Below are positions 57,422-64,000 of a DNA stretch of 64,000 nt, one piece after another. Made by a program: the position numbers and the translations under genes. The stretch is from Nitrosomonas sp. (GTDB lineage Bacteria > Pseudomonadota > Gammaproteobacteria > Burkholderiales > Nitrosomonadaceae), in contig NZ_JADZAJ010000023.1 of assembly GCF_020852615.1 (NCBI RefSeq), positions 92,967 to 156,966 on the forward strand, in the 5' to 3' direction. How positions within the stretch are numbered: the stretch's first letter is position 1; every line of letters begins with the position of its first letter. The notes below the pieces were generated by a model. It saw only the letters and a list, made by a program, of their open reading frames with translations, searched no databases and was not told the origin of the DNA.

Positions 57422-58060
57422 ATGGATGAATCAACATGTGAACAGAGTTTTCCGGATTTTTTTGCTGATGCGCCTGCTGTGACCGTACAGGACCCGCTTG
57501 CCCGGTTTCTCGGTGCGGCACGTGACGGGGTCATGGAATACCGCTATGCCGATGCGGTACGGCTGGCGGGGCATTCCTGCCCGACGGTGGCCGGTACCTG
57601 GCTGATGACGCTGCACGGTCTGCGTGCGCTGTACGGGGATGAACTGCCGGTGCGTGGCGAAATTGAGGTTTACATGGCGGATGCACGCGATGCCGGCACT
57701 ACCGGCGTTATGGCTACGGTGGCGCAACTTGTCACCGGTGCAGCACCGGAAACCGGTTTTCATGGTATTGGCGGACGTTTTGGGCGCAATAACCTGCTGC
57801 ATTTCGATCAGCCGATGCAGGGCACGATCGGTTTGCGCCGCAAGGACACGGGAGCGGCAGTACAGGTGGAGCTGGATGCCTCGGTGGTGCCCTGGCCAGA
57901 TGAAATGCGTGCACTTCTCCCGAAGGCGGCGAGCGGACAGGCCAGTACGGCTGAGTTGCAGCGTTTTGGCGAGTTATGGCAGGAGCGTGTGCGCAAAATG
58001 CTGGTTGAGCATGCTGACGATGGGGCGATGGTGCAGGTAAGCAGCTGGACGGTGAGCTGA
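57422..58060 (+). CDS. FmdE-family protein
   Basis: YADAVRLAGHSCPTVAG (HxCP) motif. Confidence 0.8.
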   Translation: MDESTCEQSFPDFFADAPAVTVQDPLARFLGAARDGVMEYRYADAVRLAGHSCPTVAGTWLMTLHGLRALYGDELPVRGEIEVYMADARDAGTTGVMATVAQLVTGAAPETGFHGIGGRFGRNNLLHFDQPMQGTIGLRRKDTGAAVQVELDASVVPWPDEMRALLPKAASGQASTAELQRFGELWQERVRKMLVEHADDGAMVQVSSWTVS

Positions 58061-58115: not shown

Positions 58116-58817
58116 ATGAATTCAACTGGGAACACCGAAAAAAATACCAGTCTGCGCTGGCCGCATGTACTGCTGATTGTTACTGGTACGATCGCTCTGA
58201 CTATTATTGGAACTTACTGGGTACTCACCACCTATATTTTTGTTTCATCCTTTGAGCCGGTTGAGCTGAGCCAAAAGGAAGAAAAGACGTTACAACAGAA
58301 GCTTCGGTCGATTGGTTACGATTTTTCCTTCTCATCTTCGCAGGCAAACCAGAGGGATGACACCCGGAATGAGATCAGTAAAGAGGGATTCCTGAAGCCG
58401 GAAGCCTACTCCGAACAGGGAGCAAAGCGTGAGATCAGCTTTACCGAGCGGGAAATAAATGCATTGCTGGCCAAAAATACCGATCTTGCACAAAAACTGG
58501 CGATTGATTTTTCCAATGATCTGGTAAGTGCACGTCTGCTCATTCCGCTTGATGAAGATTTTCCGGTAATGGGCGGGAAAACGTTGCGTCTGAACGCCGG
58601 CCTTGGCATGGCTTATCGCAACGATAAGCCCATTATCATCCTCAAGGGTGTCAGTATCATGGGGGTGCCTGTTCCCAATGCCTGGCTGGGCGGGTTGAAA
58701 AATATGGATCTGGTCAGTGAATTTGGTGTGGATCCCGGTTTCTGGAAATCTTTTTCTGATGGGGTGGAGCACATTCAGGTAACGGATGGCAAGATCGACA
58801 TTCGTTTCAAAGAGTAA
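58116..58817 (+). CDS. Hypothetical single-pass membrane protein
   Basis: N-terminal TM; long open frame; start ATG 58116. Confidence 0.7.
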   Translation: MNSTGNTEKNTSLRWPHVLLIVTGTIALTIIGTYWVLTTYIFVSSFEPVELSQKEEKTLQQKLRSIGYDFSFSSSQANQRDDTRNEISKEGFLKPEAYSEQGAKREISFTEREINALLAKNTDLAQKLAIDFSNDLVSARLLIPLDEDFPVMGGKTLRLNAGLGMAYRNDKPIIILKGVSIMGVPVPNAWLGGLKNMDLVSEFGVDPGFWKSFSDGVEHIQVTDGKIDIRFKE

Positions 58818-58932
58818 TTTTCGAATATGTTTCCGGTTGTGGGGGAAATGGTCGGATCGGGCTTGCCGGGCAAGCGGTAAGCATTTCCAGTGCTGTTTAT
58901 GGCTTTCTTCAGGCAGCTGTGATTATGGTTTA

Positions 58933-59870: not shown

Positions 59871-60038
59871 TTGTTTATTATCCAATTTTTTTGAATCGAC
59901 AGGGGATCGGTCATCCGGAATATGCAGTATTTTCCAACTGTTTTTATATAGCCAGCGTATTTGTGATAAGTGGAAAGCAAACGAACAGCCCGACCTGTTC
60001 TTTATCGGCGCAGTGGCGGATGCCGCTACCGGCCATCC

Positions 60039-60322
60039 GGGTGGCTTCAATTTCCAGCGGGCCTGGTCCTCGGGCTGCGTCGCCAGGCAGCATCAGCATG
60101 TGCAGGTTTGTCTTGTTAACACCATGCCGGTATGATGAAATCGGTCGCGTGCCATACGTTGTTGCGCTCTTCGTTTGCCACGTATTTGCTGCAAGACAGC
60201 CATAATATTTGCACCGTACAGGGGAGTTGCCGGGGTACAAGAATATGGCAACAACCATGATCTGTACTTATGTATGAAACAGAGGCGGGCGTGGTGTGGC
60301 CGGGCCCGTCTGGCTGAATTTT
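60039..60322 (+). pseudogene. intI: Integron integrase C-terminal relic
   Basis: Frameshifted reading GWLQFPA...RQHQH...AGMMKSVACHTLLRSSFATYLLQDSHNICTVQ/ELPGYKNMATTMICTYV*NRGGRGVAGP versus IntI W.WVFPA...RRHH...CHTLRHSFATHLL..GYDIRTVQELLGH.DV.TTMIYTHVLNRGG.GV.SP. Confidence 0.85.
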
Positions 60323-60347
60323 AATCCACAACTTCAGGGACCTTTTT

Positions 60348-61835
60348 ATGACCGAGCCTCTCCTCATTGCCAAATCCGGCAACACTGAACTGGCTATTCT
60401 GCCGGGTATGGCCAATCGTCACGGGCTGATTGCCGGAGCAACCGGCACAGGCAAGACCATTACGCTGCAAAGTCTGGCAGAGCAGTTTTCGCGTGCCGGG
60501 GTGCCGGTGTTCATGGCGGATGTGAAGGGTGACCTTTCCGGCATGTCCCGGCCGGGCGGGGGTAATGCCAGGGTGGAAGCGCGTGTGGCGGAGCTGGGAT
60601 TGAAAGGCTTTAGCCACACGGCCTGCCCGGTGGTGTTCTGGGATGTGTTTGGCCAGAAGGGGCACCCGGTGCGAGCAACGGTATCTGATATGGGGCCGTT
60701 GCTGCTGGCGCGTATGCTGAATCTGAACGATACCCAGAGCGGGGTGCTGACAGCGATATTCCATATTGCCGATGACCATGGCTGGCTGCTGCTGGATCTG
60801 AAGGATCTGCGCGCGATGTTGCAGCATGCGGCGGAAAACGCCAGTAGCTACAGTGCGGAATACGGCAATATTTCTGCCGCCAGTGTCGGTGCCATCCAGC
60901 GCAGCTTGCTGCAACTGGAGCATGAGGGTGGCGATCGGCTGTTTGGCGAACCTGCGCTCAATTTTGGCGATCTGATGCAGATTACCGAAGACGGGCGCGG
61001 CGTAGTCAATATCCTGGCGGCAGAGACGCTTTACAACTCACCGCGCGCTTATGCCACGCTGCTTTTGTGGTTGCTTTCCGAGCTGTTCGAGAATCTTCCC
61101 GAAGTGGGTGATGTGGAAAAACCTCGACTGGTATTCTTTTTTGACGAAGCGCATCTGCTGTTCAACGAGGCGCCCGCTGCGCTGCTGTCCAGAATCGAAC
61201 AGGTGGTGCGGCTGATTCGCTCCAAGGGCGTTGGTGTGTATTTTGTCAGCCAGAATCCGCTGGATATTCCGGATGCGGTGTTGGGACAACTGGGAAACCG
61301 TGTCCAGCATGCCCTGCGCGCCTTTACACCACGCGACCAGAAAGCGGTGCGGGTGGCGGCCGAGACCTTTCGCCCCAATCCGCAAATCAATGTGGAGGCG
61401 GCCATTACCGAGATGGGTGTGGGCGAGGCGCTGGTTTCCCTGCTGGATGAAAAGGGACGCCCCCACCCTGTGGAGCGCGGCCTGGTCGTGCCGCCGGGAA
61501 GCCGGGTGGGGCCGGCCACCGAGACAGAGCGTCAGCAGGTCATTCGCGATTCCCAGTTGTACGGGCATTATGAACAGCTGGTGGATCGGGAATCAGCTTA
61601 TGAAATCCTCAAGGTACGCGTCGCAACATCGCCGGAACAAGCGCCGAATGAAGCCGATCGTGGCTTTAACTGGGGTGAGTTGCTGGGTGGCAGCACCGGA
61701 CCGCGCGGCGGGCGGCACGAGGGCGTCGTAGAGGCGATAGCCAGGAGCACAGCACGCACCATTGGCTCAGAGCTTGGGCGCCAAGTGATCCGTGGTGTGC
61801 TGGGTTCTATTTTTGGTGGCGGACGACGGCGCTGA
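60348..61835 (+). CDS. DUF853/YjgR HerA-like ATPase
   Basis: [51 protein letters not shown]. Confidence 0.92.
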
Positions 61836-61857
61836 ACCAACCGGGTGGGTGCATCAT

Positions 61858-61884
61858 AAAAAAGGCTGCAGGATCTGCAGCCTT
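61858..61884. terminator. Terminator between convergent genes
   Basis: AAGGCTGCAG-GAT-CTGCAGCCTT, with A-run giving a U-tail on the minus strand. Confidence 0.85.
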
Positions 61885-61966
61885 CGTGGTATTGGCACTT
61901 GCCAGCAACAAAATAGATGTCCTCTTTTGTTGCTTTGATTGAGGGTGCGTAACGCTCTGAGATACG

Positions 61967-63118
61967 TCAGTGTCCTGCAAGATTTGGCGTAATCAAATAG
62001 GGCCAACGATCGGCGTGAATAAGCATCTGTCCCCTGTTATTGAGTTTGGCGGCGAGGTCTTGGTTGATGTCCAGGCCAAGCGATCTGTTGAGATTATAGA
62101 AATTGTCCTTGATCCACAAATAGGTATGCCCGATTGATGCTCCCATCGGGGGTATCGGGTAAGAAGTTGACTGGTGACCGATTACCCAGTCCATATTATT
62201 TATGTCATACGTCTTGCACGAGTCTTTCTCGCAATCAATCGAATGGATCTCTCCGTCATATATTTTGAATCGATTTGCTTCATGGGCTACAAAATGCCCA
62301 ATATCATTTATTGCAGAAATCTGGCCACGCATTTCAGGTAATTCAAAAAATTCACCTTCAACAAATTTGAACGGACGACTTTTCTCGAAGACGTGCGGTT
62401 TTTTTGGATCAAGGATCGGGCCGGTATTTCCCCCGACAACCAGGCCCGATGCATTAATTACCGAATTGAAAAAGTAATGGAAGTTGTGGTACCAGTTTTT
62501 TTCTATCATGTGCAAACTTCCGCTAACATAAACGAAGCCAATAAATTTGTCTTTTTCGCCAGCAAGACCAAGGGCTCTGGTGTTTATTCCAACTGCGTCT
62601 CCCCGGTCATTCAAACCCAGTACCATGAAATCGCTGGTTGGCCAATCAACTTTCACAGGCTTTAATTTGCCAGGCTGCGCATAGGAAAGTACCAGGGAAT
62701 ATGCTGAGGTTTGATGAGTAAATTGCCCAGGCTGGCAGTACCCTGCGATTAATCCCGTATTGGTGATCGCTTTCAGCAAAAAATAGCCCTGGCACGGATC
62801 GTCAAATCTTGACAATTTTCCATCAGCAAAGATAAAGATCTGTCCCCGGGATGGGGGTGGCGGTGTATATATGCCAGCCACATGCCCCTTGTCATTTATG
62901 ACGTGCGCCTTTGCGTAACTGAAGCCGAACTTGGATCCCTTGTTTTTTATTTTAAGTTCATCGGGAATGATGGGTGTGACGGTGTAACGAAATGGCAATG
63001 CAGCCCCGCAGCCACTCAATAATGAAATAATCAGTGAAATAAGAAAAATGGAGAATATATTGCCGCAAGAGCCCGGTGGGGGAGTGCTCGCAGAAGACAT
63101 GGCGATGGAATTATTCAT
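61967..63118 (-). CDS. HAF-type extracellular repeat (beta-propeller) lipoprotein; probable integron cassette
   Basis: Lipobox LLSGC; seven IN..G..vG-like repeats; begins just after an attC crossover point. Confidence 0.75.
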   Translation of the reverse strand: MNNSIAMSSASTPPPGSCGNIFSIFLISLIISLLSGCGAALPFRYTVTPIIPDELKIKNKGSKFGFSYAKAHVINDKGHVAGIYTPPPPSRGQIFIFADGKLSRFDDPCQGYFLLKAITNTGLIAGYCQPGQFTHQTSAYSLVLSYAQPGKLKPVKVDWPTSDFMVLGLNDRGDAVGINTRALGLAGEKDKFIGFVYVSGSLHMIEKNWYHNFHYFFNSVINASGLVVGGNTGPILDPKKPHVFEKSRPFKFVEGEFFELPEMRGQISAINDIGHFVAHEANRFKIYDGEIHSIDCEKDSCKTYDINNMDWVIGHQSTSYPIPPMGASIGHTYLWIKDNFYNLNRSLGLDINQDLAAKLNNRGQMLIHADRWPYLITPNLAGH

Positions 63119-63145
63119 AGGCTTGAAATACAGATCCTTTGGCAA

Positions 63146-63204
63146 GACTAACGCCCTGATTTCAGCCGATGCTGTGGGCAATCGGCTGTGACAAAGTGTT
63201 AGAT
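63146..63204 (-). other. attC site (59-base element)
   Basis: Minus strand ATCTAAC-ACTTTG-TCACAGCCGAT-TGCCCACAGC-ATCGGCTGA-AATCAGGGC-GTTAGTC: RYYYAAC inverse core, paired L boxes, GTT core. Confidence 0.88.
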
Positions 63205-63549
63205 CAAACAAATAACAGCTACTGATAAATCAGTGGGAGCAAGAGCGGGCAAAAACACGATACCTGAATATTGTGAACCCTGATAGGGTGGAGAGCAGGT
63301 TTCACGAACTCTTTGGGGCTGCGAATTACAGCCATTTCTGATGGCACGAGTGGCAAAAGAATCCTGTTTTGCCACTGCACCATGCTTCTATAGTTCGATT
63401 ACTATGGATGGAAACCGCTTTGCACCTGGAGCAGCGAAAGGTTTTTTCTTTTGGCTCCCGCTCTTCTCTCGTTTGGGAAGCAATTTCCCGACAAATGCGA
63501 ATATTATAAAGGCGATAACAGCAGTGGTTGCTGTATTTTCAGTGTGCAT
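63199..63549 (-). pseudogene. Frameshifted gene cassette: TM + CxxC...CxxC Zn-ribbon protein
   Basis: MHTENTATTAVIAFIIFAFVGKLLPKR / EPKEKTFRCSRCK...EAWCSGKTGFFCHSCHQKWL* / third frame ends at the TAA inside the attC inverse core. Confidence 0.75.
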
Positions 63550-63640
63550 GCTTAATCTTTTCTACATCCTCAACGTTTAAATTGAGGGAAATAAAATGGA
63601 TAGCCTGTTGTTTTGTTTTTTCTTTTGTTTTTTTGTTTGC

Positions 63641-63924
63641 GACGGTGGCCGGTACCTGGCTGATGACGCTGCACGGTCTGCGTGTGCTGTGCGGGAATGA
63701 ACTGCCGGTGCGTGGCGAGATTAAGGTTTACATGGCGGATGCACGCGATGCCGGTATTACCGGGGGGGGCCTGTTCCCAATACCTGGCTGGACGGGTTAA
63801 AAAATATGGATCTGGTCAGTGAATTCGGTGTGGATCCCGGTTTCTGGAAATCTTTTTCCGATGGGGTGGAGCACATTCAGGTAACGGATGGCAAGATCGA
63901 CATTTGTTTCAAAGAGTAACTTTC
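63641..63924 (+). pseudogene. Chimeric duplicated relic of the fmdE-like and downstream hypothetical genes
   Basis: 63641-63763 matches 57583-57705 (7 mismatches); 63763-63924 matches 58661-58822 (8 mismatches); joined at a G-run. Confidence 0.95.
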
Positions 63925-64000
63925 AATGCTCTTCGTCGTTCAGTGGCTGTGTATTTAGCCATATTGTGATGGAATGGACCGATATTTGTTACGTTGCAAT

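Follow-up and report, generated by a model that had tools for sequence, protein, structure and literature searches.

The bottom strand of an attC site folds into a hairpin when single-stranded, and the integrase IntI binds the R and L boxes of the folded site and cleaves within the R box. Both extrahelical bases of the folded site make contact with IntI, and their identity and spacing alter excision efficiency (PMC3053210). Under the IntegronFinder definitions a CALIN requires at least two attC sites, whilst a single attC without an integrase is termed a SALIN; SALINs are common, with 3400 recorded in 21,105 genomes, 95% of CALINs do not lie near an intI pseudogene, and insertion into a non-att genomic site has been shown experimentally (10.1101/2022.09.11.507474).

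Here we describe a site of this kind in a Nitrosomonas genome; the genus follows from the Lon protease encoded in the window, which shares 83-89% identity with Nitrosomonas genomes. The stretch of DNA analysed (the window, 64 kb) corresponds to positions 92967-156966 of contig C23 in a 2.09-Mb assembly of 42 contigs, and the contig continues for 473 bp past it. The initial annotation of this DNA had proposed a textbook attC site at 63146-63204 that defined a cassette array convergent on an intI relic, forming a rearranged integron or CALIN that may still be recombinogenic. On the evidence set out below, the site is very probably a genuine attC of the 59-60-nt class that survives singly, as a SALIN, in a variable region amid integron debris.

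The attC site and its predicted activity

The plus strand of 63146-63204 reads GACTAACGCCCTGATTTCAGCCGATGCTGTGGGCAATCGGCTGTGACAAAGTGTTAGAT and forms an imperfect palindrome of 59 bp. Comparison with cassette arrays of the relative G015 fixed the canonical top strand as the minus strand of the window; the bottom strand, which folds, is here the plus strand. The site and its parts are as follows.

63146-63204, minus strand: attC site, its top strand being the window's minus strand; evidence from covariance models R1 and R2, the G015 relatives and folds
63204-63198, minus strand: R'' box, ATCTAAC
63197-63193, minus strand: spacer on the R'' side, 5 nt
63192-63186, minus strand: L'' box, GTCACAG
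63188-63181 and 63170-63163, minus strand: arms of the 8-bp stem, perfectly paired
63180-63171, minus strand: loop, 10 nt
63165-63160, minus strand: L' box, CTGAAA
63159-63153, minus strand: spacer on the R' side, 7 nt
63152-63146, minus strand: R' box, GTTAGTC
Between G 63152 and T 63151, minus strand: predicted crossover on the top strand

The 59-bp site with RYYYAAC and GTT cores that had been claimed is indeed present, since on the minus strand ATCTAAC agrees with RYYYAAC at 7/7 positions and GTTAGTC with GTTRRRY at 6/7. The R'' and R' boxes are mutually complementary over the inner 5 bp (CTAAC/GTTAG), and the two outer R-box positions are unpaired, as they likewise are in 12 and 16 of the 34 sites used for model training; open outer pairs are usual because the bases there come from the neighbouring cassette. 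With a length of 59 nt, an 8-bp stem and a 10-nt loop, the candidate lies within the range of the attC training sites (52-117 nt). Single-stranded folding of the 59-mer gave -12.8 kcal/mol for the plus strand and -11.1 kcal/mol for the minus strand, against shuffle means of -5.1 and -5.0, and none of 200 shuffles per strand folded as well (z -4.2 and -3.4). The lower free energy of the bottom strand fits an extra G.T wobble in its L box.

An Rfam scan of the window matched zero families, and Rfam contains no attC model. The covariance models (CMs) used here were built in this analysis, and IntegronFinder's own model is a different one. A regular-expression and fold scan for attC-like pairs proved too unspecific, giving dozens of matches in coding DNA, and CMs were used instead; nhmmer half-site profiles were too insensitive, missing even true halves, and were replaced by position weight matrices (PWMs). 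The first model, R1, was trained on 34 attC sites, with the candidate left out, taken from arrays downstream of intI in this genome and nine relatives together with two G015 array contigs. In the R1 alignment 84.7% of cells are paired, compared with 22-44% when the partners are slid, and covariation supports the pairing of the R box, the L box and the stem, with a score of 0.336 where shuffles give 0.116. Applied to 222 kb of loci, R1 found 65 sites, in 12 array loci; all array-locus matches fall on the strand expected from intI, bar one truncated at the end of its locus, and none occurs in 77 kb of HerA control loci.

R1 scored 63146-63204 at 30.9 bits (E 1.6e-5), covering model positions 1-60 of 60 and on the minus strand only. 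This is the sole real match in the 64-kb window with filters off, the next having an E-value of 8.9, and a 30.8-bit match has an E-value of 5.4e-4 genome-wide. The genome-wide search scored 150 of 478 pre-filter candidates, amongst which 63146-63204 is not listed, so that the filter-free search of the window is the valid test. As R1 held the closest relatives of the candidate, the model was rebuilt without six sites of the CAGC..GCTGA type; the resulting model, R2, scored the candidate at 22.4 bits (E 0.0032), still the top match in the window. A score from an attC covariance model had been suggested as a check, and both models thus return a significant one. Among the 30 array matches outside the training set, which score 23-51 bits, the candidate stands at about the 33rd percentile. 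These models thus identify 63146-63204 as a genuine attC site of an integron.

When 63000-63640 was searched against the DNA of 40 relatives, the match was restricted to 56 nt of the attC, with 80% identity, at three places in G015. All three lie in cassette arrays, in 59-nt attCs of the same layout (GTCTAAC TGTTC GTCGCAGCCGAC CGCCTACGGCGG CGGCTGAAC TCAGGGC GTTAGGC). A separate similarity involves contig C9, on which positions 1836-2840 hold a CRISPR array of about 14 repeats of GAAACACTAATGCCCTGATTTCAAAGGGATTGAGAC; the repeat segment ACTAAyGCCCTGATTTCA matches the plus strand of the attC at 17/18 nt. A CRISPR-repeat origin was rejected, the match having a BLAST E-value of about 1, involving one arm and being probably due to chance.

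The description of the site as textbook, with paired L boxes, was not borne out. Only 14 of the 19 pairs of the model are standard in the candidate. On the top strand two of the three L-box pairs are mismatched (G.A and C.A) and T-A alone pairs; on the bottom strand one G.T wobble is possible, giving 2/3 pairs if it is counted. Inspection of the bottom strand for its extrahelical bases, also proposed as a check, gave a divided answer: one bulged base is present on the folded strand, but is a T at the position usually held by G, and the inner extrahelical T is absent. Elsewhere the bulged L-box base is G in most sites (C on the top strand) and C in the G015 relatives. The second extrahelical base is lost because CAGCCGAT/ATCGGCTG form a perfect 8-bp stem; in the relatives, GCCGACCGCC/GGCGG-CGGC leaves an A (T on the bottom strand) unpaired.

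Since IntI reads both extrahelical bases, the candidate is expected to be a weak site. It would be at best a weak substrate, usable in trans by the intact IntI whose gene lies on contig C32, and it is this gene that makes activity in trans possible. Low or no activity is argued for by the loss of one extrahelical base, the poorly paired L box and the invariance of the locus, eight public contigs from several samples being identical and colinear across the site, with no cassette turnover seen there. Present-day usable activity, as judged from the sequence, is therefore possible but somewhat doubtful. With no second attC in cis, excision is impossible, and insertion at the site alone is conceivable; a cassette could then be inserted, for instance by attC x attC recombination, with IntI from C32 acting in trans.

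A solitary site and its flanks

With CM filters off, no second attC was found at E<=1 anywhere in the window, the 473-bp tail of the contig or a 619-bp extension provided by public contig L075 (GCA_949281345.1), which is identical to the window contig; in particular, the CM detects none after the lipoprotein gene downstream of the site nor before the 435-bp segment upstream of it. The cassette array that had been claimed consequently comes down to one attC. An array or CALIN would have at least two co-oriented attCs within about 4 kb, and the locus has one. Nor does it hold a complete integron, with intact intI, attI and array, of the kind present on contig C32. What it holds is one attC and, in its vicinity, no intact integron integrase, the nearest intI being a pseudogene fragment of about 62 codons, and under the definitions above the candidate, as read from its sequence, is a SALIN, not a CALIN. 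The proposed rearranged integron is likewise unsupported, and the site has no integron-like tie to the intI relic. On the minus strand the order is MazE, Fic/Doc, duplicate fragment (itself on the plus strand), 435-bp segment, attC, lipoprotein gene, terminator and convergent HerA gene, with the following features.

64375-64602, minus strand, beyond the window: MazE-type antitoxin gene (PF04014, E 8.1e-8, from L075)
63989-64378, minus strand (3' end, 63989-64000, in the window): Fic/Doc toxin gene (PF02661, E 7.9e-18, from L075)
63640-63927, plus strand: internally deleted direct duplicate of 57582-57705 plus 58661-58826 (blastn, tblastn), about 94.5% identity
63640-63605, minus strand: A-rich tract where the orphan segment meets the duplicated fragment; the final base belongs to the neighbouring part
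63205-63639, minus strand: orphan segment, 435 bp, upstream of the attC; would be the body of the attC-owning cassette
63574-63568, minus strand: core-like motif GTTGAGG, in the orphan segment
63549-63388, minus strand: 53-aa ORF, in the orphan segment
63375 to 63199, minus strand: 58-aa ORF, stopping on the TAA inside ATCTAAC
61967-63118, minus strand: lipoprotein gene of 383 aa with an LSGC lipobox, immediately following the attC on the same strand
61947-61964, minus strand: possible attC 3'-half relic (L'-spacer-R'), TATCTCAGAGCGTTACGC, 2 nt after the lipoprotein stop
61861-61885, minus strand: intrinsic terminator hairpin between the convergent lipoprotein and HerA genes

Upstream of the attC, the orphan segment has no DNA match in the 40 relatives other than the attC itself (query 63000-63640). 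A search of 5.8 billion proteins gave no homologue of its 53-aa ORF, and the 58-aa ORF has no Pfam match and is uncalled by public gene callers. The stop codon of an upstream cassette had been placed in the inverse core; the stop is real, but the upstream "cassette" contains no demonstrable gene, and the stop says little by itself, since every ORF in this frame has to end at CTAAC. 

The duplicate at 63640-63927 holds FmdE-like and p238 fragments and forms the right-hand boundary of the attC-bearing block. The two copies of the duplication bracket the block cyt c - HI0933' - intI relic - HerA - lipoprotein - attC; at the left copy p238 and cyt c are adjacent as in the relative G072, and at the right copy p238', Fic and MazE are adjacent as in G070. 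The arrangement resembles two alleles of the region downstream of p238 set in tandem. The Fic/Doc and MazE genes point the same way as the attC and the lipoprotein gene.

Downstream, the next gene had been said to begin just past the crossover, and the lipoprotein ORF does so, its start at 63118 being 33 nt beyond the crossover at GTT (63152/63151). The protein has no Pfam match, the gene is absent from the 40 relatives, and the family is rare (10 clusters in 5.8 billion proteins), with the lipobox conserved across its alignment. A search of 63119-64000 on the minus strand gave no sigma-70-like match that might serve as its promoter. In the homologue P0004 (45% identity), an attC of 35.6 bits with a degenerate R'' lies 135 bp upstream, and a decayed attC of 10.7 bits directly follows the stop; in the decayed site R'' (GCCTAAC) is intact and R' reads GTCATGC. 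The P0004 locus is L084, a Logan DRR318390 contig, in which the two attCs lie at 12-79 and 1349-1405, and from this arrangement P0004 looks like a cassette caught mid-decay. Three other contexts of lipoprotein homologues contain no attC. In the window, TATCTCAGAGCGTTACGC ranks fourth of about 128,000 positions with a PWM of attC 3' ends; its score of 8.8 bits is below that of every training site (10.8-23.7), and the CM with filters off does not detect this half-site. The lipoprotein gene is probably, we infer, a former cassette whose own attC has eroded.

The intI relic and integron parts elsewhere

Beyond the lipoprotein gene and its terminator, the neighbourhood comprises three features on the opposite strand.

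60348-61835, plus strand: HerA-like ATPase gene (PF05872, E 1.6e-224)
60126-60311, plus strand: intI relic, about 62 C-terminal codons with one frameshift and one stop (TIGR02249 positions 250-284, E 1.8e-5)
59974-60090, plus strand: C-terminal fragment of an HI0933-like flavoprotein gene (PF03486 positions 206-243 of 244, E 7e-8)

The intI relic reads HTLLRSSFATYLLQDSHNICTVQG / ELPGYKNMATTMICTYV*NRGGRGVAGP and aligns to residues 253-312 of intact IntI, with the catalytic His, His and Tyr replaced. It shares 49-56% identity with the genome's own intact IntI (tblastn) and 70% nucleotide identity over 128 nt, and matches PF00589 with an E-value of 0.018. The relic proper begins near 60126, the FQRAW..RQHQH stretch being part of the HI0933-like fragment, which has DNA homology to the relative G044 over 59976-60083, where the intact gene encodes 393 aa. 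An integron-specific IntI insertion was also considered for 59974-60090 and ruled out, as this is the HI0933-like C-terminus (PF03486).

HerA is native to the neighbourhood, the stretch 60314-61836 being homologous to G044 at 88% nucleotide identity. In public contig L080, which derives from a different sample, 3 kb match exactly apart from 43 substitutions, and these all fall in 61256-61631, a 376-bp part of the HerA 3' region that diverges by 11% from L080. From this clustering, 61256-61631 looks like a recombination tract inside HerA.

The convergent geometry that had been reported is confirmed, the cassette direction (minus) opposing the intI relic at 60126-60311 (plus). The relic is 2.8 kb from the attC, with HerA between them; its own attI and cassettes would have lain 5' of the relic. 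The attC is on the far side of HerA. In G044 the order is p238, intact HI0933-like gene, DUF3644 <- attC <- ORF119 (minus strand) and HerA, so that a cassette and attC occupy the slot held here by the intI stump. The G044 attC (L185, G044:C10, 12585-12644; 46.4 bits) is single, next to HerA and between two co-oriented genes; it is on the strand expected for an integron whose intI abutted HerA, which would put the array of the relic on the relic's 5' side. In G070, p238 is followed by a convergent, truncated Fic gene and a MazE gene (97% identical), and MazE is preceded by an attC (L184, G070:C15, 8484-8541; 49.4 bits) that overlaps the stop of a 183-aa ORF, lies between two co-oriented genes and is unaccompanied by a second attC. 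Both the G044 and the G070 sites are in positions syntenic with the window.

Contig C32 of the present assembly encodes an intact intI at 150995-151939 (TIGR02249 486 bits against a cut-off of 265; 336-aa frame). Positions 150995-159802 (locus L015) form a complete integron with at least 10 attCs (39.6-78.8 bits), its array reaching near the contig end, and two of these attCs, of 60 nt, are almost identical to the classical attC-aadA7 type. A 179-aa ORF and an OsmC-like gene flank another lone attC, of 30.8 bits, at C18:109094-109153 (L091:11095-11154, minus strand); the contig ends about 650 bp away. An N-terminal intI fragment with one TAG stop (TIGR02249 positions 1-62) is found at C9:143847-144035, and about 8 kb on its upstream side and 3.7 kb on its downstream side are free of attC sites. 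Across the genus, attC matches (E<=0.001) occur in 54/61 genomes, many with exactly one, and an intact intI in 19/81. Lone attCs are ordinary in Nitrosomonas.

Origin of the site and comparison with known systems

If the site is a genuine attC that survives singly, it would form the 3' end of what is left of a cassette, no longer coding (63205 to about 63573), and the lipoprotein gene would be the next cassette, its own attC since lost. Several observations count against this reading. The site scores within the lowest third of genuine array sites; one canonical extrahelical base is absent and the other is T rather than G; the L box is 1/3 Watson-Crick on the top strand; the upstream cassette has no demonstrable gene; the lipoprotein gene is without a detectable attC, having a sub-threshold half-site at most; and three of four other lipoprotein homologue contexts also lack one. 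That the site is not an attC at all, and is instead a palindrome arisen by chance, a hairpin serving the lipoprotein gene as 5'-UTR or terminator element or a stray fragment of a CRISPR repeat, is nevertheless scarcely credible. The hairpin does lie 27 nt upstream of the lipoprotein ATG, and 17/18 nt (ACTAACGCCCTGATTTCA) match the repeat of the C9 CRISPR array. However, the CM E-values are significant and strand-specific, full-length relatives of 80% identity sit inside cassette arrays, no T-run follows the hairpin, and the CRISPR match is confined to one arm at a BLAST E-value of about 1. A live CALIN or rearranged integron, with at least two cassettes, tied to the intI relic and still exchanging, could draw on the same real attC (R1, R2), on co-oriented cassette-like genes on both sides of it (MazE-Fic upstream, lipoprotein downstream), on the motif resembling an attC 3' half 2 nt after the lipoprotein stop and on an intI relic 2.8 kb away. 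We consider it highly improbable, given that about 14 kb searched with filters off contain no second attC at E<=1, that the half-site at 61947-61964 scores below every training site, and that HerA, resident and syntenic in G044, separates the relic from the attC. The relic itself is reduced to about 62 codons with its catalytic residues replaced, and eight contigs from several samples show no structural variation at the site.

The remaining alternatives concern how a lone attC came to be here. A single cassette may have been inserted by integrase into a non-att site (attC x attG, Loot et al.), which would make the lipoprotein gene resident DNA and not a cassette. SALINs are abundant, experiments have demonstrated such insertion (10.1101/2022.09.11.507474), the layout of an ORF, an attC and a gene without attC recurs at C18, G044 and G070, GTTGAGG at 63574-63568 could be the left junction, and an intact IntI is available in the genome. 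We nonetheless think such an insertion unlikely: the TTAG after the crossover exactly complements R'', where a GWT genomic target should give a hybrid; the lipoprotein gene is lineage-specific with a cassette-borne homologue; and the putative inserted cassette is without a credible gene. Decay of a short array is favoured over direct insertion into a non-att site, because the TTAG makes a native-looking R' and the lineage-specific downstream gene has a homologue borne on a cassette. A broader reading, which we find decidedly unlikely, is that the HI0933-like/HerA slot near p238 is an ancestral Nitrosomonas integron home that has decayed in lineage-specific ways, leaving lone attCs that now act as landing pads in trans. 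The intI 3' stump would then have been kept here, a cassette and attC in G044, and an attC and MazE-Fic cassette in G070; if this were true, an intact IntI elsewhere would park cassettes outside its integron at lone attCs.

The direct significance of the site is small, as it adds one more solitary attC to a class that numbers thousands. It does provide a worked example of an attC that appears textbook by eye and is CM-positive, yet lacks an extrahelical base read by integrases, and equally of a nearby intI stump that does not make an integron. The p238/HI0933-like/HerA neighbourhood, which holds differing integron remnants across Nitrosomonas, bears on the decay of sedentary integrons and on the origin of SALINs.

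Set against the 59-60-nt attCs of Nitrosomonas arrays (G015 C61:3713-3771 and C32:153388-153447), the candidate has the same length, box order and CTAAC/GTTAG cores, and shares with them the L'' sequence GTC(N)CAGCCGA, the L' sequence CGGCTGAA and the TCAGGGC spacer. It differs in that its inner stem is perfectly paired, with the extrahelical T lost, that L' ends in AAA and not AAC, that the bulged base is T and not G/C (bottom strand), and that it scores 30.9 bits where the G015 relatives score 54-63 bits. In common with CALINs, the locus holds attC DNA without a working integrase nearby, probably derived from integron decay or rearrangement; unlike CALINs, which have at least two attCs, it has one that is detectable. 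It resembles the SALIN class in having one CM-positive attC with no intact intI or further attC within 4 kb, lying 3' of a short segment and in the same orientation as the gene that follows, and departs from that class in the recognisable intI pseudogene fragment 2.8 kb away and the intact integron elsewhere in the genome.
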